Shown here piece by piece: positions 2-11,923 of a stretch of 11,923 bases of DNA. The DNA comes from a virus (lineage: Duplodnaviria; Heunggongvirae; Uroviricota; Caudoviricetes), in the IMG/VR virus record IMGVR_UViG_3300035394_000193. The stretch is one strand, 5' to 3'. The notes under the pieces are model-generated. The model saw nothing but the letters and a program-made list of their open reading frames with translations, was not told the origin of the DNA and did not search any database. The position numbers were made by a program, and so were the translations under genes. Every line of letters begins with the position of its first letter. Positions within the stretch are counted from its first letter, which is position 1.

Positions 2-958
2 AGCTTAAAAGGTATGGGAACAGAGATTGCAGGAAGTGCTCCTGAATTAATAGACGCCGGATTAGGTGCTTTAGGAGTAAAGAGAGCAGACGCTAATTTA
101 GCACGTGGTGCAGCAGGTTTTGATAAAGGTGCTAGTACAGCATTTAAAGTTGCTATGAAAACAGGAAATCCTTGAGCAATTGCAGCAACAGGAATTGTTG
201 CAGGATTAAGTAAAATTAATATGTATGGTGGAAAAACTCTTAAGAGTTCTGGAACCGATGCTATTAATATGAAAGGTTATACTCCTGGAATGGAAACAGC
301 AGGTAAATTTGCAATAACAGGAAGTGGAAAGAAATATGATAGATATGCAAAACAGAATAAGAATATAGCAAATACTAATTTATTAAAAGGTAATGCTTCT
401 TATGGAGATTCACAAAATCAGCTGGCTGCTTCAAATAGTTATGGTGATATTGCTACTAAAAACTATCAACAATTACAAGGAGGAATTAATCCTAATGTCC
501 TTTCCGCTAAAAAAGGAGGAACTATTAATCCTGCAAAACTTTCTAATATAAAGAAAAAAGCTTTAAGAAATGTTAAGAAAGCCCAAGAAGGAAGTATGGC
601 AATAAATACTACAACTTTAGCTTTAGGTGGTAAAGTTAATATAATTCCTGAAGGCGCTTTACATGCACATAAAAATCATTATGAAGGTGACCTTGCAGAA
701 CAAGTTACATCAAAAGGTATTCCTGTTATTACTTATGAAGAAGGCGATAAAATCGTTCAACATGCAGAAATAGAAAGAAATGAAGTTATATTTCATATAG
801 ACACTACTAAGCAATTAGAAGAATGATTTAAAGAATATAATGATACAGAAGATACTAAAAAGAAAGCAGAATTAGAAATAGAATGTGGTAAATTTTTAGT
901 TGAAGAAATTTTAGAGAATACTTTAGACAAGACTGGACTTTTGGAGGAAGTTAACTAA
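2..958 (+). CDS. Partial (5'-truncated) putative virion cargo/structural protein, at least 318 aa under table 4
   Basis: Open frame from nt 2 to TAA 956-958 when TGA 173 (GNP-W-AIAA) and TGA 824 (LEE-W-FK) are read as Trp. The TAA overlaps the next ATG (TAATG). C-terminal block NIIPEGALHAHKNH..KGIPV..AEIERNEVIF..GKFLVEEILENTLDKTGL resembles a conserved crAss-like phage protein (from recall, not searched). Confidence 0.8.
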
Positions 959-3207
959 TGAAATATATACCTAAATATCAAAGACCTTTTTCTCCTTTAG
1001 TTACAATTCAAGATAATACAAGAACGGTATATCCACAACAAGCTTTAATACAATTACAACAAGGACTTAGGGATAATCAAAAAGAGCAGGATTATCAAAC
1101 AGCAATAAAAACTAAATCTGAAGTTGCTTTTAAGGAAAAGTATAAACAATCACCTCATAGGTATAAATATGATACAGACCCTCAATATAAAGCACAAACT
1201 GATAAGCAAGGAAAAGTATCAGCAAAAGAAAATGGAGCAATAGATTTACCATCTTCTGATTTAAGAAGAAAAGATGTTGTTAATCCTGCAAATATGTGAA
1301 TGTATCCTAACTTAACTGGAGAATCTAATAGACAGGCTACAAATTTTTCTAATGAAGTTATAGGTGCTGCTCTTCCAATCCTATTAATTAATAAAGTGGG
1401 AAAATTGCCAGGAATAACTGATAAAGTTATAAACTCAACATTAGCAGCAGGAAAAAATTTAGTTAATCCCGCCGAACGTTTATTAACTGAACAGGAGTTA
1501 CTAAAATTAAATCAAACATTAGACAAAAAAGGCATTCTTCCACAACAGAAAACTTTTAATTGACCATGAAAAGAACCAATAAGAAAAGCAATAGAACCCT
1601 TTGGTTATGGCAGTGCTCAAGGTGGCATGACAATTACTGGTGGTAAATTTAGTGATTTAAAGGGAGCCATCTTTGGAGGAAAAAATCCAAGTTATGTCAG
1701 TTCTAAGGAATGATTAAAAATTCTTAGTGGATATGATGATGATATAGCAGTGGCTTTTAAAAACTTAAGACAAAAGAAATTATCAGGAACTGAATACGAA
1801 GATGCTATAAATAATTTAATAGAAAGTACTGGACAAAGAAGATCATCAGTAATTAGTGAGCCAAATATTAAAAAGGCTTTAAATAATAGGGATAAATTAA
1901 GAATACGACCAATTGATCCTTTGGCTCCCAAGGAATTTTCTAATACCTCTCCCATAAAATTAAATAATAGGTATACAACTTGAGATATGTATTTGGGAAA
2001 ACCTCAAATTAAACACCCAATGTATACCGTAAGTCCTTTAAGTACTAATAAGAAAACTGTTTATACAATTAAACCAGAATTTACAAATAAAGCTGCAATT
2101 GAAAGAGAATTAAAAGAAAATATTAATTTAGTTGCCAATAAAGATTCTAATTTAGGGAGATGAAATATATTAACTGATAATAGAACTAAGGACTATACAT
2201 TATTAGATTCAGATGCATCTTATTTTGGCACTATGGGTGGATTTAACTGAAAATTTAAACCTTTAGAAAATGGAAATGTACAAGCAATTGCAAATGATAT
2301 ATGAGATTTAAATCCTTATCAGCAATTTAAAATTAAACAAAAATGAGTTCCTCAAGTAATTAAGAATAAAATTGAACCATTAGTACAAAAAATTGAAGTA
2401 GGAAAACTGTTAGGTATAGGAAAACCCTTAGATGTAAGAGTTGGATTTGAATTTGATAAGACTGGAAACATAATTAAACAATTTAAATGTGGAGGAAATA
2501 TGAAATATCAAATAAAATCTAAAACAAAGAAACAAAAACTCCAAGATGGAGCACAAGTTCAATATAATGATGCTATTAAGAATAAAAGACTGATTAAAAA
2601 AGGTCAAACTGGCTTAAAAGTAATATCTGGACCAACAGTATATAGTAGAAATGACCCTGCTTATAAAGCATATCAGGATAGTTTATCTGAATATAATTAT
2701 GGTGTGAAATTTCAACAAGATAATCCTGACTTTGATAGATATTCAATTAATGAATATCTTAATAATCCTTATATTCCATCAATTATTAAAAATAATTTTA
2801 TAAGAAATAAGAATAAACCTATAGGTGTTATGGCAGACCCTAAGTTTAGTCATGTTGGAGCTATATATAAAAAGCCTACTAATCCTATTACATTAGCACA
2901 AGTACCAAAGTTACAACCTAAACTTAATCAATCTTCTAATACCAATCTTTTACAACCAAGACAAACTCCTGAATTATCTTATCCTATTGATAAAAAATTA
3001 CTTAGTTCGAGAGGAGTATATATAAATGCGGGAAATAATGATGCTAATCATCAAGGAGAAGGAATGTACACTATTAATACTTATGATGATGGCAGTTCTG
3101 ATAAAATAAAATCTATTAAAAGAAAATCTTCTGACTTAATTGTTAAAAAACAAATAGGAGGGAAATTACCCGATATAACTAATATACTTGCTCAATGAAA
3201 AAAATAA
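958..3207 (+). CDS. 749-aa modular hypothetical protein (putative virion cargo) under table 4
   Basis: Track ORFs 958-1299, 1300-1563, 1750-1983 and 2500-3198 share one frame. The gaps contain only TGA (1297, 1561, 1567, 1711, 1981, 2161, 2248, 2302, 2344, 3196) and no TAA/TAG until TAA 3205-3207. Start coupled to the upstream stop (TAATG 956-960). Confidence 0.8.
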
Positions 3208-3776
3208 AAATACAAATAGCTGATAAGCAATACACGGTTGAATTAGCTGAATCTGAGGAAGAACAAGAAGAAGGATTACAAGGACGAATTGAATTACAAG
3301 AAGGAACAGGAATGTTATTTATGTTTGATAAAAATGAAGTTCGAGGATTCTGAATGAAAGATACAGAAATTCCTTTAGATATTATCTTTATAGATGATGA
3401 ATTAGAAGTAACAGCAGTTTACGAAGGAAAACCAAATGATATTACTTTATTAGAAGCTGAATGTACTTATGTATTAGAAGTAAATCAAAAATCAGGTATT
3501 AAAGAAGGCGATGAGTTAGACTTTGAACCTGATAATAAACAAATAAAAAAGACAGATAAGATGTTAGTGTTAGATTCTAGTGGAGAAACACAGATGGAAT
3601 TAGATGGCGGTGAGAGAATTTTTTCTCGCAAGAATACTAAAACATTAATTAAATTCGCTAAGAAAGCAGCAACAACAGAAAAGGAGAATGATTATAAAGC
3701 ATTAGGAAAAAGAATGTTTAAATTTTTGCAGGTACAATCAGAAACTCCTGCAGAGTATGTAGAATCCAAAAATTAA
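3195..3776 (+). CDS. DUF192 (COG1430-like) family protein with a C-terminal extension, 193 aa
   Basis: ATG 3195 gives MKKIKIQIADKQYTVELAESEEEQEEGLQGR..GMLFMF..GF-W-MKDTEIPLDIIFID..YVLEVN, matching the DUF192 signature (VElA...GL...GMLF...FWMK.T..PLDiiF...VLE). The W is TGA 3351-3353. Ends at TAA 3774-3776. Confidence 0.9.
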
Positions 3777-3787
3777 TTAAAACAATG
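3774..3787 (+). promoter_or_regulatory. A-rich, SD-less translation initiation region (also upstream of 4146 and 10974)
   Basis: TAATTAAAACA-ATG (3785), TAATAAAAACACAAATAT-ATG (4146) and TAATAAAAAT-ATG (10974) have no AGGAGG. Bacteroidota are known to initiate from A-rich, SD-less regions. Confidence 0.5.
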
Positions 3788-4075
3788 ATTGTAAAAAAAT
3801 TACAAATGGGTGGACCAGCTCCTGAAGCGGCACCTCAAGGTGGTGCACCTGCACCTGAACAAGGCGGACAACCTCAAGGTGGTGGACCAGAAGAACAAAT
3901 TGCTGCAATGGCACAACAGATTATTCAACAATTAGGTCCTGAAGCAGCAGCAATGCTAGCTCAGATTATAATGCAGATGTTACAAGGCGCCGCAGGAGGT
4001 GGAGAAGAAGCTTCACAAGGCGAACCTGTATACGCTAAAAAAGGCGGAAAATTAGTTTTAATAGGCAGAAAATAA
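3785..4075 (+). CDS. Small Gly/Pro/Gln/Ala-rich protein (96 aa), putative small virion cargo protein
   Basis: Intact ORF under either code (no TGA or TGG). N-terminus KKLQMGG, C-terminus GEPVYAKKGGKLV, central short helix. Resembles a small conserved crAss-like protein found before the large cargo genes (recall). Followed by a terminator. Confidence 0.85.
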   Translation: MIVKKLQMGGPAPEAAPQGGAPAPEQGGQPQGGGPEEQIAAMAQQIIQQLGPEAAAMLAQIIMQMLQGAAGGGEEASQGEPVYAKKGGKLVLIGRK

Positions 4076-4084
4076 GCCTACCTC

Positions 4085-4124
4085 TAAAGGGAAGCAGAAT
4101 TATCTGTCTTCCCTTTATTTCTTT
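4085..4124 (+). terminator. Rho-independent terminator
   Basis: TAAAGGGAAG (4085-4094) pairs with CTTCCCTTTA (4108-4117). Inner stem CAGA/TCTG with loop ATTA and a single-T bulge at 4107. Followed by TTTCTTT; lies in the only sizeable intergenic gap. Confidence 0.85.
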
Positions 4125-4145
4125 AAATAATAAAAACACAAATAT

Positions 4146-7100
4146 ATGGCACTAGTAAAAAAATTACAGCCTGGAGGTAATATAGACCAAACTGCATTAA
4201 ATGAAGCATTGAATACAGAATTGGGGTCTTATAACCTAAAGAGCAAAGACGAAAGAAAAGTTAGAGATGCATTAACTAGACTAAGAGATTTTAGTGCAAC
4301 TTCTGGTAATTCTTTTACCGCAGACCAAGTTGCTCAAAAATTTATAATCACAGGACCTGGTAGCAATCAATTTCAAGGAAGTCCTGATGATGTAAAATCA
4401 AATTGATTTACAGGAAAACTTAAAATTAATGATGATCAAGATGCAATGTCAGTTGCTGCTGCTATCTATGCAGGGGCACATAAAAATATACAAGGAAGTA
4501 GTTCTACTACTTCTACTACTCCAACAAAAACTTCAATAAATATCGGAGATTATGATAAATATCTTGTAGATGATATTTATGGAGGACCTGATGTTTTCAG
4601 ACAAGATTTTAGAAAACTTAAAACAAATGATTTAAGGCAAAAAGAGTATTTAACTAATATGAAAGACTATATTGATAAATATCAATTAGGTTGGGATAAA
4701 GATATAGATAAATATGATTATGCTGATAAAGACAAAATAAATGAATTACGTGCAGCTCTTGGTGATGGAAATATTGCTAATTGAGATAAAGTAGTTCCTA
4801 TAGCTCGTAAATTAGGATGAAATCCTAATCATATTCTAGTAAATGATGTAGATTTGGCAACTTATGCAGAAGAAGATGCTAAAACAAAACAAACTAACGA
4901 TGTTGCGCAAGCTAATAAATATTCAACAGATTTACAAGGAAAAGGACTTTTACCAAACATATCCAATCCATTACTTAATGCAGGCTATGTCCCTGTAGAA
5001 AGACTAAATCCTGCAGGATATTCTAATGATCAAATAGAAGCTTTTAATAATTATATTCTTAATAAAAAAGGATTTATGTTTCAAGCTCCCGGAGGACAAC
5101 AAATTGCTATTGACATTCAAGGAAATCCTATTCAATCTAATGGTTCAGAATTTGATCAATTTAATCCTTTAACAGGTAAAGCTTGAGGAGGAGATTATAC
5201 AACTGGATTTCAATATGGCGAAGGAAAATATAAAGCTTCCGATGAAGATAATGACGAAAATGATAGAGGTAGAGGTTTAGATATTCCTCAATTACAAGGT
5301 TGAGGTAGAGCAACAGGTTATTCAAGAAATAGTAAAGATGTAGCTCATGCAAAATTAGGAGAAAATAGAGATTATACAAAATATATTGAATTTAACACTC
5401 CTAAAGGAAAAATCACTTTAACTAAAGATGACAAAGGAGTATATACTTCCTCTACGGGTGAAACATATCCTAAATTATGAATTAAAGGATATAAACCTGA
5501 TTATGATGTTAATATAGAAAATTATGATGCAATTTTAAACGATGTTGACAATCCTTTATCTTCTATACCTACAAATAATGATTATGGTAGTTTAACTGAT
5601 GCTTTAACATCTTTAGCTGAACAAAAACAAGCTATTATTAAAGATGGTACTTATTCTTCTGTGGGAGAAATGCAAAAGTTGGCAGGATATATGAAACATA
5701 TTATAGCCACAGCTAAACCTGGAGAAGATAAAAGAAAAGCCTTAGCAACTTATGCTGAATTAAGAGAAATTTTTAAAAATAATAATATTCCTACTAATAA
5801 ATTGGGCGGAGTAATTAAAGCACAAAAAGGAATGTCTTTTGCAGAATATAATGCAAAATATTCTCCAAAACCAAATACTACTCAAACTACTGCTCCAGGT
5901 AATAAACCGGCTGTAAGTGCGGAAGGGATGCTTAAAAATATGAACACTTTGGATGCTATATCTTTAGCCGGAACAACAGCTTCATTTATTCCTGGAATAG
6001 GTGTTATTGGAGGAGCAGTTAGTACTGTGGCTGATTTAGTAAACGATATTAATAAAGGTAAAAGTTTTGGAGAAACTTCCGTAAATTTAGGAATGAATTT
6101 AGGTTTTACAGCATTAGCTTTTTTTGGTGCGGGAGGATTAAAAGCCTTAAAAGTAGGAGTAGAAGCTGCTAAAATAGGCAAAGCTGCAGATTTTGCTGTT
6201 GATCTTACTACAGCAGGTAAAAAAGCGGAAGCATTAATAAAATTAGCGAAAAAGTCTGAATCTTCTGTAGATTTAGGAACAAAAGCTCTTTTAGAATCTA
6301 CTTTAAAAGTATCAAATATTTCTAAAAGTTTAGGAGGAGAAGGTAGTAAAATATTAAAAGCAGTAGCCAATGCGGATAATGTTGCATCATTAGATGAACC
6401 TACAAAATTAATCTTAAAAAATGCTGGCTATATTGATGATGCTGGAAATGTTCTTAAAAAAGAAGGAACTAAATTAATTCAAGCTGATTTAGGAATTGCT
6501 CATGGTATTCAAAATCAAAATATAACAAAAGTATCTAGAATAGCAAATAATTGAATTAAAGAACCAATAGAAACTACAGGAAAAGCTGTTATAGATAAAA
6601 GTTCTAAATTATTAAATAATAAAACTGTTAGTGGAATAGCTAGAACTGCTTTTATCGGAGGGACTGCTGGAACTGGAGGTTATGGTATTATTAAAGATTA
6701 TAATTCCGCCCCTGAAAATCTTTCTTGAAATGAAAAATTAGGAAGAACTCAAACATCTGACTGAAGTAATTTATTAATGGGGGCATCTACAGCTAGAAAT
6801 ACTCTTAAAGGAAATAGATATAAAAGAGCGCTAGAAAATCAAACAGAGCCTAGTACAGTAAAAGAAGCTGTTCATAAAATTACGTTAGGCGAAACTACAC
6901 ATGAACTTTCAAGTCCTTTAACATCCCTTCCTAAAAATTTTAAAAGTAAAGTTTGAGAAACAAAAGCAGCAGAAACAACACATATTGAACGTGTAAAGAA
7001 AGAATTATCTGAAAAACTTAAAATCTCTGATCCTACCGAAAAAGAAAAAGTTATAAATGATTTTTTTAAAGATAAGAAAATATCTGATCTTAAAAATAGT

Positions 7101-9053
7101 CTTGAACCAAGAGAGGAAGGAGAATTAGTACTTAGAGAATTTGTTAATAATAGATTTAAAGACCAAGCAAGGAGTATAAAAGAATATGAATTAGCTAAAA
7201 AAATAATTGAGCGTGATATTAAAAGTGTTGGAAGATTAAATGCTAGTCCTTGAGGAACTAAAAAGTTTGAAGCTAAGAAAAAAACTTCTAAACCAGCAGA
7301 AGTAACAAAATCTTCTGAAAAACCAAAACAATTCTTGCCACCCCCTACTAAGTCAGGAGTAGTTATACCGCCTCCATCTTTTAAAAAACCCTCTGTAGTT
7401 AAAGTTAATGAACAATTAATTAATAAGGTTAATAAAAAAGCAACCCCAAGAGATAAATCTAAAAAAGGTTGAACAGGAGAAACTCATTGAATGTTAGAAG
7501 GTGGAATTTTAAAATATCAAAATGCCGCACAATCATCAATGGGTCCATTAAATAATCCTACATGAAAAAAAGGATACACTAATACTTTACAAAATACAGG
7601 TGTTGATTATGGTACAGGATTGAGTCTTAAAGCGACACAACAATTTACAGTTCCGTCACAACCTAGAACCGGAAATTATTATGGAGGAGTTACAAATGAA
7701 TTAATTCAAAAGAATTGGAATCCTGAAATTTTAAAAGCTGCTGGTTTAGACCCAACTAATGTAAGTACATGACCTTCTAATACTCCTCAATTATTACAAA
7801 AATATATTGAAACTAGACCTGAATTAATTAGTCAATTAAAAGATCAAACAAGTCCTTCACATAATAAATTTGGTATGGATTGATATTATACAGGATTAAA
7901 ATCAGAAACTCCATCTACTCAAACTACAACAACTACTCCAACAGGAACTCCTGCTGCAGAAACTAAACCTATAGTAATTCCTGCAACTGGGCCAACTACT
8001 AATATTAATAGTAATGTAATTCAAAAACCTGGAATATGAGATTCTTTAAAAGGAACTCTTGATTCTACAGGTATTGCTAATGGTTTAATGTATTTAAATA
8101 CTTTAGGTGCAAATGCATGAATAGGAAATGAACAAAGAAAAGCTATTTCATCCGGACTTTTTCAACTTCCTTATATGCCACATCAATATATAAGAGCTGA
8201 TAAACCTTATTCATTAGCTGCAAATAAACAAGCGGCTGACGTAAATTCTCAAGGTAAAAAAATAGCAGCATCAACATCGGATTTAAATCAAGGAAATGCT
8301 ATTAGATTACAAGCTTTAAAACAAGCAAGCGGAATAATTGAAAAAGGACAAGCACTTGATTGGGAACGATTGGATAAAGTTAGAGAAATGCAATTAAAAA
8401 ACAATGCTTCTGTTGATTCATATAATACTCAAACTCTTGGTAAAAATAGAGGTCTTACGGCAGAAGCAATGCAAAAAATACATTTAACTAATGCAAATCA
8501 ACGTAATGCTCAAAATACAGCAACTAATAATTGATTAACTGCTTGGGATAAAAATTATGGTTTAAATCAATATAAACAAAATATGGCAAAATATTTTGAT
8601 ATGACTAACGACCCTAAATTAAAATCTTTATCTGATGAATACACAGACTTTGCAGGAGAGAAAGGAAAGGCATCTGCACTTGCGACATATAATGCTAATA
8701 AGGCGAATTATGATAAAACTCATATGCCTGGAGGTGTTAATGGAGGAACTCAATACAAACCTTTTGAAGAATCGGATGAATATAAACAATGGCAAACTGA
8801 TATTACTAAAAAATTAGATTATCTTAAATTGCAAATGAAACCTTTAGAATTAGCTCAACAAAAATTAAATCTTGATCAACAAATGTTGTATTGGAGAAAA
8901 GAGGGCGGAAAAATGACAAAGAAAGAGAAAATTGATATTGATAATAATAAATTCAATAATGTTAAGCGATTAAAGGAAACTGAATTAACTTATAAAGCAA
9001 TAATGCATAATAATGAAATGTTACAAAAAGCTTTAATTAAAGTGTTTAAATAA
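4146..9053 (+). CDS. 1635-aa large putative ejection/cargo (trans-envelope) protein under table 4
   Basis: Track ORFs 4146, 4446, 4854, 5661, 8175 and 8583 share one frame. 19 in-frame TGA (4404, 4782, 4818, 5184, 5301, 5478, 6552, 6726, 6762, 6954, 7251, 7470, 7488, 7563, 7770, 7881, 8037, 8118, 8532) and no TAA/TAG until TAA 9051-9053. Contains a Gly/Ala-rich hydrophobic hairpin (about 5955-6150), low-complexity linkers and an N/Q/A-rich helical C-terminal part. Confidence 0.8.
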
Positions 9054-10966
9054 TGGAATATAGAAAAATAAGAAAAATGGAACAGGGGAGTGGATTTGCA
9101 ACATTCACTCCCATTGTTAAAACTGCTCCAGCATCAAGATCTTCAGATGATAGACATTCAAATAGTGATGAAAAATCTCCGGAATCTTCGTCTGTTATAG
9201 ATTCTAAAATGATAGAGCAGCTATATAAATCAGGGGGATTAGTAAATGATGTAAATCAATTAGTATCTGAATTGGTACAAATAGAACAGAGTTCTACAAA
9301 TCCTTTCTTAAGTAATATTAATAGAGGTAGAACATTACAAATTGCGGCTAAAATTAATGAAATTAGTCAAAACAAAGACTACTGAAAAGACGCTATTACT
9401 CGTTCAAAAGAAGCAGGAGGTTTAGGTGAAGTTGCAGTAGATACTGATGGAAGAGTTTATACTAAGACTAAAGATAATAAAATACAAGCTATATCTTTAG
9501 CTGATTATTCTGAAAATAGAGAATCTACTAAACTTTTAAGTGTTCAAGAATTATTATATGAAAGACAATATAATAAATCTTTGACAGGACAAAATGGAGT
9601 ATTTACTATTGCCGATAATGCAATTGGATTAAATAAAATTACAGAACATATAAAATCCTTAGTATCTGCTTTAGGAACTGATAGTACAGAAGATTCAGGA
9701 ATTTATTCTAAGTCTAAATCTCAAGAATTAGCAGCGTCTTTTGGAGGTAAACAACCTACTAAGGAACAAGCATATTCACTGTCCATTCTTAATAGAGTTA
9801 TTAATAGTCCATCTGAGTACTCTCAAGTTAAAACTAAAAATTCAACTGAAAGAGCACATATAGAAAAAGCATTAGGATATATATGAAATACTTTAGGAAA
9901 TCCTGCTCAACAGAAACTTAGAGCAACTGCTGCTTTAAATGGGGTAGCTAGACCTGAACAATTTATTTTAGATATATTAGAAACAAATACGGATGAAAGT
10001 CGAAGTATTGAAGTTTCTCCTGAAACAACAGCAAAAGCAACAGGAAAAGATACAACAGATGATAATTCTAAAAAAATCGCCTTGACTCCTTCAGAATTAT
10101 TTCATAATGATAGATTATACCAGCCGGGAATGACTTATGAAATTAATAATCCAAAAGCAAAAGTAAGTTTAAGAGCTACAGCTACAGGTATTGGACCTTT
10201 ATATAGTTTAACAAAACCAGGAGAAGTATTAGAAGCTGCAGTAGTATCTAGTATTTTTGATAAAAATAATTATTCTTCTATTTTGGACAAATCAAAAGTT
10301 TTTATAGGTGATACTAAAATTGATCCTTTATTACTTTCAGAAGTTGCATTTACAGGAGAAGATGTTGGAAAAGTTTATTTACCTGTTAAATCTGATGGTA
10401 CTCCTGATTTAGGACAAATGGAAAGATTTAATAATGCTTACCAAGTATTTAATATTAACAAAGATACGTGAACTACTCAACAAATTCAAGAATATTTTAG
10501 AAAAGCAGGATTTCCTGGAATCCAAATAAAAGAAAGTAAAACTTCGGATGGAAGTATTACTAAAGTAATTGGAGAAAATGGAAATGTTAAGCCTTTCTTA
10601 GCGGTTCCGATTATTACTAATTCTGCTTCAGATTTATCTAATAATCCATGAATGGTTGAACAAGTAGGTAATCAAAAAGATTCTGCTAAAATGGTAATGA
10701 ATCAAGCGTTCTCTGTTTTAGGAGGAACTCCAAGTAAACCAAAAACAATAAATACAAGTCCTTGAGGGTACCTTTCTTTAGAAACTCCTTATAAAGGCGT
10801 GATGTTTGTAGCATATCGTCCAGAATCTAGTGGTATATTAAGTTCTATGTATGGACATGTTTCTGGCAAAGCCCCAAATGAAACAGATATATATAGAAAT
10901 TTAAACTATAGTGTTACAGGTAATAATCCAATAGGTATCCAAGGATCTGCAGCAGTTTTAAAATAA
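9053..10966 (+). CDS. 637-aa hypothetical protein, putative crAss-like virion cargo protein, under table 4
   Basis: Track ORFs 9053, 9581 and 10082 share one frame, joined through TGA 9383, 9884, 10469, 10649 and 10763. Ends in tandem TAA TAA (10964-10969). Start overlaps the upstream stop (TAATG 9051-9055). Confidence 0.8.
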
Positions 10967-10973
10967 TAAAAAT

Positions 10974-11923
10974 ATGGAAATATTAAAACCAAATGATATA
11001 TTAATAACTACATTGAATAAACCCGAAGCTACTCCTTATGATTTACTTTCGAGTAATATTAATGGATCTAATACATCACTTTTCTCTAAAGATGAATATA
11101 AACAATCAGAATATATTAAAAATACATTTACAGGAAGTGATGGAAAATTTGATGATTTAGCTTTTGACAAAGCTTATAAATTAGCTCAAAATAATTACTA
11201 TCAATTAACTAATAATGAATATTTAAAAGAATTAGATCAAATAGAATACAGTCCATTTGATATTACTCGTCCTAAATTTGCTAAAACTATTAATGTATCC
11301 GCAACTTTAGAAAAAGAATATAATCCATTTGAAGAAAAGAAAGGATGGACAGGAATAAATTCGACTGATGCTAGTAATTTATCTTTACGAGAATTAGCCC
11401 AGCAAGGAAAAATATTTGATCCTATTAATAAAACTTGAAGTGAAAAATCTTTAAATGATTTAAGTTTACTTGATAAAGTATTTGGAGATACTTTAGTTTA
11501 TGCACAATTTGATGAAGATGGTCAACACGTAGATTCTAATGGATTCTTTGTAGATCATAAAAAAGGAGATTGAAAAGTAAATGAAGATGGAAATCTATTT
11601 ATAGAGAAGTTAGGAAATAGAGAAATCTATGGAAAACAAATAGTTAATTCTATGGATACTCTTACTACTGATGGTTCTTTAATAAATAAGTTTGATTTCT
11701 TAGATTCGGATGGACGAGAAAAATCTATTACTGGTACAGTTTTTAAACTTGCTGCTAATATTGCTCCATTTATTATTCCAGAATTTGGAATATTTAAGGG
11801 TATGACATCTATTCCATCATTATATGGTGGCTTAAAAGCTACAATTGGATTAGCTTCATCTCTTCCGACATTTTATAAAGCATTAGAAGGTTTACTTTTA
11901 GGTGATACAAATACTTCATTAAC
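10974..11923 (+). CDS. N-terminus of a large putative crAss-like virion protein (3'-truncated, at least 316 aa)
   Basis: Open to the window end through TGA 11436 and 11571. Motifs KPNDILITTLNKP..F...DGKFDDLAF and HKKGD-W-KVNEDG..E.LG.R..YG.Q...D.LT.DGS..N.FDFLDSDG.EKS resemble the N-terminus of giant crAss-like virion proteins (recall). No RNA polymerase motif within the window. Confidence 0.75.

Follow-up and report, generated by a model that had tools for sequence, protein, structure and literature searches.

A short conserved peptide at protein ends and module boundaries in the putative cargo cassette of a TGA-recoded crAss-like phage: a candidate docking tag

We analyzed a stretch of 11,923 nucleotides from a phage of the Caudoviricetes (IMG/VR record IMGVR_UViG_3300035394_000193; the whole stretch is called the window below) and found that five of its seven proteins, namely those of genes g1, g2, g4, g5 and g6, carry a common peptide of 8–12 residues, the tag, at their termini or between their modules. 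The tag most probably serves as an address label, hitherto undescribed, that directs cargo loading into the virion; as a device it belongs to a known type, the virion- and compartment-targeting peptides, of which it forms a new sequence class. In the mechanism that we favor, at somewhat less than even confidence, it is a tethered docking peptide for swappable cargo modules, like the capsid-targeting sequence (CTS) of phage T4. Unrelated modules, with cell-wall hydrolases, enzymes and large structural cargo as candidates, would be recruited through the tag to one common site in the assembling particle, which could be the scaffold or core, the inner capsid surface, the portal or the tail lumen. 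The packaging of the tagged proteins, the binding of the tag and the partner bound are steps that we infer.

Read with translation table 11, the window holds only scattered short open reading frames (ORFs) and its genes break up; with TGA as tryptophan (code 4), it resolves into seven long plus-strand ORFs, g1 to g7 (Table 1). Across these genes, 39 in-frame TGA codons stand against 7 TGG, and the TGA codons of g5 align with invariant tryptophan columns of its orthologs, including the standard-code ortholog P0081. The phage translates TGA as tryptophan. Comparisons drew on contig L002, which belongs to the same phage, on five related phages (L017–L021), four of them clearly TGA-recoded, and on MT835470, a standard-code human-gut phage record of 117 kb and 115 ORFs that served as a stand-in for a whole-proteome test. 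The recoded relatives are L017 and L019–L021; the g5 gene of L018 is free of TGA and reads correctly under table 11, and its neighboring genes require code 4.

The tag occurs in two terminal forms and one composite. The N-terminal form is M-x(2-6)-hydrophobic-K-K-[LYF]-Q-x-G-G, with the glutamine at residue 7–10, the C-terminal form is basic-K-x-G-G-x-[LIVM], and the internal composite GG-x-hydrophobic-K-x-Q-x-G is a C-terminal form followed by an N-terminal one, found where two tagged modules join in one chain. The first 7–12 residues of g1, g2, g4, g5, g6 and their orthologs have hydrophobic-K-K-[LYF]-Q-x-G-G in common (the full N-terminus of g1, MKKKLIKKHQRG, lies outside the window), and the copies are embedded in flexible, fast-evolving linkers. 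An initial annotation, made from the letters of the window, had listed fifteen such peptides at the ends and domain boundaries of five dissimilar proteins; with TGA read as tryptophan, all fifteen were recovered, none more than 3 nt from its annotated position, and together they represent a real short linear element. They are of unequal standing: most are conserved by position, but ALGGKV of g1 is no free linker motif, being the strand with which a conserved C-terminal domain begins, and RKMEQGSG of g6 is a degenerate copy in a family that mostly has the canonical K-[LFY]-Q-x-G-G. Homologs of g2 include GGWLDKYQ, GGILKFQSGG and the termini MKKNNWLDKYADGG and ..GGWLNKYSS; judged by sequence, the WLDKY form is the same element as the tag.

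Expected counts were obtained from 5000 per-protein shuffles of the window proteins, for patterns picked after the data had been seen (a dot stands for any residue). K.Q.G occurs 8 times against 1.6 expected, a count reached in 0 of 5000 shuffles, KK.Q.G 4 times against 0.17, GGK[LMV] 4 times against 0.38, GG.[ILMV]K.Q 3 times against 0.027 and K.Q.GG 3 times against 0.14 (P = 0.0004). The loose pattern GG.[ILMV] is enriched only twofold (11 against 5.5, P = 0.02). Since the patterns are post hoc, conservation among orthologs and absence from non-cargo neighbors are the stronger tests. At the DNA level, synonymous codons differ among the copies (GGT GGA, GGA GGT, GGA GGG or GGC GGA, with both CAA and CAG), and no repeat family in the window maps to them, so that selection appears to act on the peptide and not on the DNA. 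DNA repeats as a substrate for recombination were rejected for the window for want of any that maps to the copies.

Conservation by position extends to the N-terminal tags of g2, g4, g5 and g6, all four g5 sites, the C-terminal tag of g4, and the internal seam and C-terminal tail of g2. The four g5 sites, which divide the chain into about three modules of 500 amino acids and a conserved C-terminal helix region, are kept in place in 13 orthologs (30–57% identity) whose surrounding sequence is variable or unalignable. In six g4 orthologs, MKVxKFQxGG and ..KKGGKLVxIGRK are maintained around a drifting Pro/Ala/Gly linker. The g6 family comprises 696 cluster representatives at E ≤ 0.001 in an exhaustive profile-free search (a locus search with g6 in IMG/VR found nothing), and its 91 full-length members (20–55% identity) start with M-K-x-N-I-x-K-[LFY]-Q-x-G-G-G-F-A-T-F-T-P. 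Among them, G12 is kept in 90, G13 in 82, K8 in 78 and Q10 in 71; over all 637 residues of the protein, the double glycine of the tag is in the top fifteen columns for conservation in the 91-row alignment, and the roughly 25 residues that follow the tag are Ser/Thr/Ala/Pro-rich and little conserved. An AlphaFold2 model built on this alignment is confident over residues 50–620 (predicted local distance difference test, pLDDT, mostly >85; mean 86), and residues 1–45, the tag and its linker, are at pLDDT ~40. With so low a score on a confident body, the g6 tag is a free, disordered peptide on a tether and lies outside the fold in this model. Foldseek gave no match of the model in the PDB at E ≤ 0.001.

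The genomic setting suggests what these proteins may be for. In L002, the gene that ends at the start of g1 encodes a 1414-residue protein with PF25731 (crAss_MUZ); L002, L017, L019 and MT835470 all have the PF25731 muzzle gene and then g1 to g7 in identical order, and the order common to L017–L021 and MT835470 is muzzle, g1, a variable slot, DUF192, g4, g5, g6 and g7. In crAss001, the muzzle gene gp44 is followed by gp45 and gp46 and then by the RNA-polymerase-associated proteins, and gp45, gp46 and the latter proteins were identified in virions by mass spectrometry and termed cargo proteins (PMC10172136). Because the window lies directly 3' of the muzzle gene, as in crAss001, we read it by position as the putative cargo (ejection-protein) cassette of a TGA-recoded crAss-like phage, and this synteny suggests that its proteins are probably carried inside the phage particle. 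A Pfam scan of the seven window proteins returned DUF192 (g3) as the sole family; PHROGs gave no family for any of the seven, and PDB sequence searches with g1, g2 and g5 gave no match.

The tag is restricted to part of this neighborhood. In six related phages (L002 and L017–L021), we compared the cargo proteins with a non-cargo set consisting of the muzzle, upstream, DUF192 and g7 proteins. The 18.1 thousand cargo residues contain K.Q.G 33 times and the 24.4 thousand non-cargo residues 0 times, and both [KR].Q.GG and [KR]K.?GG.[ILMV] occur 15 times versus 0. The initial annotation had proposed to judge the motif by its frequency in non-virion proteins and its conservation by position; by these measures, it proved specific to cargo (33 versus 0 for K.Q.G) and fixed in place (13 g5 and 91 g6 relatives). 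Its remark that the DUF192 protein and gene 7 lack a copy also holds, as the tag was never seen on the muzzle, DUF192 or g7 protein, here or in any relative examined. In L017–L021 and MT835470, the tag is borne by g1, the slot protein, g4, g5 and g6. Among the 115 ORFs of MT835470, clear tags are confined to the cargo cassette and three further proteins: a basic one of 275 residues starting MATKFQQGG, one of 123 residues and one of 981 residues, in which a Pfam glucosaminidase domain (609–737) is followed by GGIIKYQ at residue 739. The gene of this tagged glucosaminidase (L024 16887–19829, equivalent to MT835470 113887–116829) lies between small hydrophobic ORFs resembling holins/spanins. The tag may also mark a lysis-module or tail-associated lysin.

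Further afield, codons for GG-x-hydrophobic-K-Y-Q-x-GG were found in 57 IMG/VR stretches (~17 distinct contexts), all in frame and in long ORFs (median 1135 amino acids), and a control with reversed codon order gave 7 stretches. We therefore give next to no credence to the motif being a chance or compositional artifact of Lys/Gly/Gln-rich, AT-rich coding sequence: GG.[ILMV] alone is indeed just twofold enriched and Lys-rich N-termini are common in AT-rich genomes, but the shuffles, the positional conservation, the zero count in 24 thousand residues of neighboring proteins and the reversed-codon control refute it.

The architecture of g2 shows how copies come to lie inside a chain. Its N-terminal tag is followed by module A (residues ~19–193), module B (~175–515), a seam and a C-terminal part (515–749) whose counterpart in relatives is the small, variable slot protein. 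Module B (g2 residues 175–515; window 1480–2500), with 31 homologs and 42 invariant columns, is a strongly conserved globular domain; its invariant blocks include NRYxTWDMYLGKPQ, YFGTMGGFxW, NDxWDLxP and EVGKxLGIGKPLxVxVGF, and it has no Pfam, PHROG or PDB match. A module-B profile search of loci returned 3 viral and 7 metagenome loci. Modules A and B recur in many architectures of 450–1300 amino acids, in P0043 together with SLT. Module B is often C-terminal, and the chain then stops 2–8 residues past the GG, a stop that the length of several contigs shows to be genuine; the ends read ..RQFENGGNL (P0008, 55% identical over g2 1–515), ..QFEEGGTIK, ..TFRLGGSIT and ..FQSGGKLINYKK (GGKLINYKK type), with GG-x-[LI] kept. 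The g2 chain itself runs on past module B as ..KQFKCGGN-MKYQIKSKTKK.. and ends ..GGKLPDITNILAQWKK, and the slot protein of L018 starts MKYIIKSKKGG and ends ..GGTINIDNILALWKQ. Given the match to the end of P0008 and to both ends of the L018 slot protein, g2 is an N- and C-tagged module fused in frame to a tagged slot protein, its internal motif being the seam between a C-tagged and an N-tagged protein.

The slot has a constant N-terminal tag and C-terminal tail, with a different payload between them in every relative: Phage_lysozyme2 in L020, small unrelated proteins in L017–L019 and L021, and modules A and B in the window. The tail, KKxGGxI..[ND]I..IL[AS]xWK[KQ], recurs in the slot proteins of L018, L020 and L021, which are dissimilar in other respects. 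Constant tagged ends with swappable payloads fit a docking or packaging tag. The same facts, an internal g2 copy that is a fusion seam and payloads exchanged between conserved ends, could also be explained by a passive seam, that is, a flexible hinge or a scar of module recombination, fusion or splitting with no specific partner. We consider this improbable: the lysine, the aromatic residue or leucine, the glutamine, the double glycine and the next hydrophobic residue are kept across 91 proteins (20–55% identity) while the linker drifts, there is no DNA-level repeat to drive recombination, and N-terminal tags stand on g5 and g6, which are never fused in any relative seen.

Docking is suggested by the combination of traits: a short conserved peptide on a flexible tether, borne by unrelated proteins of one compartment, at either end or between domains, and forming the only constant part of a fast-changing payload set. 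Moreover, as the proteins that end just past the GG keep GG-x-[LI], the tag looks like an epitope needed in the finished protein. The initial annotation had suggested a linear tag that docks cargo to the procapsid or scaffold, and this is partly supported overall, the tag-plus-linker layout and the swappable payloads both fitting it. A bolder version, possible but doubtful, is that of a portable loading and injection tag used across the order by the tag-bearing crassviruses, in which 10–12 residues on a linker would suffice to load any protein and deliver it into the Bacteroidota host, payloads would be swapped on a chassis, and internal copies would act as multivalent anchors that set the order of ejection.

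Several points weigh against docking. Packaging of these proteins is predicted from synteny with crAss001, and BLASTP found no similarity between g1 and crAss001 gp45 or between g6 and gp46; hhalign of the g1 C-terminal domain against gp45 residues 420–560 gave one match of 13 columns (GGKVNIIPEGALH / GIQIGVDPEGAPN) that is not significant (probability 1%). The orthologs are non-independent samples, and the regular expressions were fitted post hoc. There are more copies than one address per protein would require, four in g5 and five or more in g2. The g7 protein, although the positional counterpart of the giant polymerase-associated proteins packaged by crAss001, is untagged, so the tag is not a general ticket into the virion, and crAss001 packages its cargo without a K-x-Q-x-GG tag. 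Finally, docking and cleavage are not mutually exclusive, hence part of the evidence fails to separate them.

Cleavage was the other function raised by the initial annotation. The tag would then be a maturation or processing site for a phage-encoded or host protease, with the cut at the double glycine or adjacent to it (such as hydrophobic-Q-x-G/G or Q-x-G-G/x, the slash marking the bond), freeing modules from polyproteins and trimming terminal peptides, possibly after docking, in a T4-like dock-then-clip scheme. Copies lie exactly at module boundaries and are clustered in g2 residues 512–552, the same modules exist fused or as separate genes, and a conserved GG with flanking specificity residues is as well suited to a protease as to a receptor. 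Sites of the SUMO/Ulp and adenain type look similar to Q-x-G-G, and clan CE proteases cut at GG-X in core proteins of adenovirus and African swine fever virus (ASFV). We nevertheless hold processing to be unlikely, if worth keeping in view. A Pfam search of the tag-bearing 117-kb MT835470 record gave nothing for peptidase families C48 (PF02902), C39 (PF03412), C5 (PF00770), S77 (PF03420) or S78, and no protease family was found in the 20 structural-module ORFs scanned there, which leaves a divergent or host enzyme to be invoked. Proline follows the glutamine in g5 (KKLQ-P) and the double glycine in g4 (MGG-P), so neither the Q-x nor the GG-x bond is a universal scissile bond and only G/G remains; the residue after GG is proline in 2 of 6 g4 orthologs and N, T, S, K or G in other copies. 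Proteins ending 2–8 residues past the GG keep the motif, and trimming so few residues has no evident purpose. The crAss001 virion paper contains none of the words 'cleav', 'proteoly', 'protease' and 'scaffold', and the peptides and density of gp45 spread over residues 79–552 (PMC10172136).

In a further alternative, tags act as stickers that bind each other or neighboring cargo, yielding a cohesive body built into the head, ordered for sequential ejection, or assembling a trans-envelope conduit after ejection. Several copies per protein, at both ends and on all small or mid-sized cargo, fit a multivalent network better than a single address, the alternating hydrophobic and polar residues flanked by glycines resemble short strands or hairpins, and tagged cell-wall hydrolases act outside the capsid after ejection. 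Conversely, the C- and N-terminal forms of neighboring genes give no consistent series of pairings, and the conserved C-terminal sequences of g1 and g5 are different ones, all of which makes such stickers quite unlikely in our view. A predicted complex of g5 residues 1–140 with g4 (pairing of C- and N-terminal tags) scored 0.00, with controls not run, and carries no weight on binding either way. We also discarded a K-Q cross-link site of the transglutaminase type: one g6 relative in five has E, D or A in place of the glutamine, and nothing else supports it.

The literature check called for at the outset turned up no prior description of the motif in full-text searches that covered WLDKY, the cargo of crassviruses and DUF192. 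The closest relative of a docking tag is the T4 CTS of internal proteins, which is 'the only conserved' part of a diverse set and directs it into the scaffolding core (PMC3012670). Like the CTS of IPI-III and Alt, the tag is a conserved N-terminal peptide of ~10 residues on otherwise diverse, putatively internal and ejected proteins. Unlike the CTS, to which it bears no sequence relation, it also occurs at C-termini and between modules, and, whereas the CTS is cut at L/I-x-E by the gp21 protease, neither a protease nor such a site was seen here, PF03420 (Peptidase_S77) being absent from MT835470.

The crAss001 cargo proteins gp45 (C1) and gp46 (C2) share with the window genes the position directly 3' of the muzzle gene, and gp45 is held at the portal, the ring proteins and the muzzle by short ordered segments separated by disordered ones (Bayfield et al. 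2023, PMC10172136). FGGWLNTQGG lies at gp45 residues 426–436, at the start of the portal-bound ordered region 425–552, and gp45 ends with ..KKAKGGKVRTKKKK.., which resembles the basic-GG-K-[VL] form; related GG-flanked peptides may thus already sit in the solved map. In contrast to the window proteins, those of crAss001 lack an N-terminal K-[LYF]-Q-x-G-G, and no sequence similarity to g1 or g6 was detected.

In Iyer et al. (2017), the polyvalent proteins of phages and conjugative elements are multi-module, rapidly shuffled and delivered with DNA, with payloads including lysozymes, and processing by embedded peptidases is proposed; the paper has 0 occurrences of 'linker', and the passages retrieved from it mention no shared terminal or junction peptide (PMC5512222). 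The window proteins are similar in that the g2 modules A and B turn up in numerous shuffled architectures and the slot payloads differ; they are dissimilar in having no MPTase or other peptidase domain (Pfam: DUF192 only). Encapsulin cargo-loading peptides and microcompartment encapsulation peptides dock unrelated cargo inside a protein shell via flexible Gly-rich tethers, and encapsulin shells have the HK97 fold, as in phage capsids. The C-terminal tag of g4, GGKLVLIGRK, appears similar in style to such Gly/Leu/Ile/Lys-rich encapsulin peptides; the microcompartment peptides differ from the tag in being amphipathic helices, at a terminus or between domains. The GG-X sites of adenain, ASFV pS273R and Ulp/SENP lie, in adenovirus and ASFV, in internal virion proteins or polyproteins. 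The tag shares with clan CE sites and C39 leaders a double glycine with a hydrophobic residue a few positions upstream. The lack of PF02902 and PF00770 matches in MT835470 sets it apart from clan CE sites, and proline after GG may do so too. As for the analogy with bacteriocin double-glycine leaders, also drawn by the initial annotation, it does not go beyond resemblance: these leaders have 15–30 residues, end in GG and go with a cognate C39 peptidase (ABC transporter), the GG of the tag is at 9–13, there are internal and C-terminal copies, and PF03412 is absent from MT835470.

Table 1. Genes and tag copies of the window (positions in nucleotides)
Feature	Position	Strand	Description
g1	2..958	+	5' truncated in window; 409 aa in full; first gene 3' of the muzzle gene
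g1 AKKGGTI	506..526	+	basic-basic-GG-x-hydrophobic form; KKG[GA]KI in L017 and L020 orthologs
g1 KKAQEGSM	575..598	+	L017 counterpart VKKLQEGN at the same place
g1 ALGGKV	620..637	+	start of conserved C-terminal domain GG-K-[IVM]-N-V-I-P-E-G-A-L-H
g2	958..3207	+	749 aa; N-tag, module A, module B, seam, C-terminal part
g2 N-tag MKYIPKYQ	958..981	+	homologs start MKYKIPKKQKGG, MNKVIKYQQGG
g2 seam KQFKCGGN/MKYQ	2476..2511	+	C-tag of module B joined to slot-protein N-terminus
g2 KLQDG	2536..2550	+	lineage-specific stretch without orthologous counterpart
g2 KKGQTG	2596..2613	+	lineage-specific stretch without orthologous counterpart
g2 C-tail KKQIGGKL..NILAQWKK	3145..3204	+	tail common to dissimilar slot proteins
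g3	3195..3776	+	DUF192 domain, residues 14-109, and conserved C-terminal extension; no tag
g4	3785..4075	+	96 aa; tag at both ends
g4 N-tag MIVKKLQMGG	3785..3814	+	MKVxKFQxGG in orthologs
g4 C-tag YAKKGGKLVLIGRK	4031..4072	+	GG, L, V invariant in 6 orthologs
g5	4146..9053	+	1635 aa; four tag sites
g5 N-tag MALVKKLQPGG	4146..4178	+	near-identical in 12/13 orthologs, 30-57% identity
g5 KLGGVIKAQKG	5799..5831	+	K-x-GG-[VI]-[IL]-K-A-Q-x-G kept, near residue 554; flanks variable
g5 EGGILKYQN	7497..7523	+	GG-I-L-K-[YFA] in 12/13 orthologs, near residue 1119; flanks unalignable
g5 RKEGGKM	8895..8915	+	[RK]-K-x-G-G-x-L-[ST]-K kept, near residue 1586
g6	9053..10966	+	637 aa; large-family member
g6 N-tag MEYRKIRKMEQGSGFATFTPIV	9053..9118	+	degenerate copy; Ser-rich linker follows
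g7	10974..11921	+	3' open; ~2700-2970 aa in relatives; untagged

Beyond the tag, the proteins of the cassette have features of their own. The g1 protein combines a Gly/Ala-rich hydrophobic N-terminal half with the conserved C-terminal domain, with GG, N, I, P, E, G, A, L and H unchanged across 6 orthologs; an AlphaFold2 model of this domain with the 6 orthologs (pLDDT 59) was too poor for a structure search. The DUF192 protein g3 is a fixed, untagged member of the cassette in every relative, and may act as an assembly factor; its 80-residue C-terminal extension is kept as far away as MT835470, where g6 identity drops to 23%. Between its two tags, g4 has a Pro/Ala/Gly/Gln linker, a conserved helical hairpin core and a second linker; the invariant helix-turn-helix core reads PEEQIAxMAQQI..GPEAAAMLAQxIMQML, and the size and shape of the protein are reminiscent of small scaffolding or adaptor proteins. 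The g7 protein has its own conserved N-terminus (..KPND..). The stop codon of g5 and the start codon of g6 overlap by one base (window 9050–9055), as do those at the g1/g2 junction (958), and this suggests that the genes of the cassette are translationally coupled.

Another pattern, hydrophobic-E-x-[ED]-G-[GA]-E/L-x-hydrophobic, recurs as well. Copies are NIIPEGALHAHKN in the g1 C-terminal domain (626–670), MELDGGERIFSRKN in the DUF192 extension (3590–3640) and MKKQNIEVEGGELLI, with which many proteins containing module A begin (N-termini of P0040–P0078), and FINEGGSHEEN and VDPEGAPN in the portal-bound region of crAss001 gp45 resemble it. It is a possible shared small domain, with no significant hhalign match.

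Crassviruses, the most abundant human gut phages, select and load several megadaltons of cargo; the crAss001 structure paper gives the location of the cargo and never uses the word 'scaffold' (PMC10172136). The tag offers a testable handle on this loading and a sequence rule for predicting which uncharacterized crassvirus proteins are packaged and injected. It would explain how payloads such as lysozymes and other enzymes can be exchanged without re-evolving packaging and, if sufficient by itself, could load reporter proteins into particles for ejection studies.

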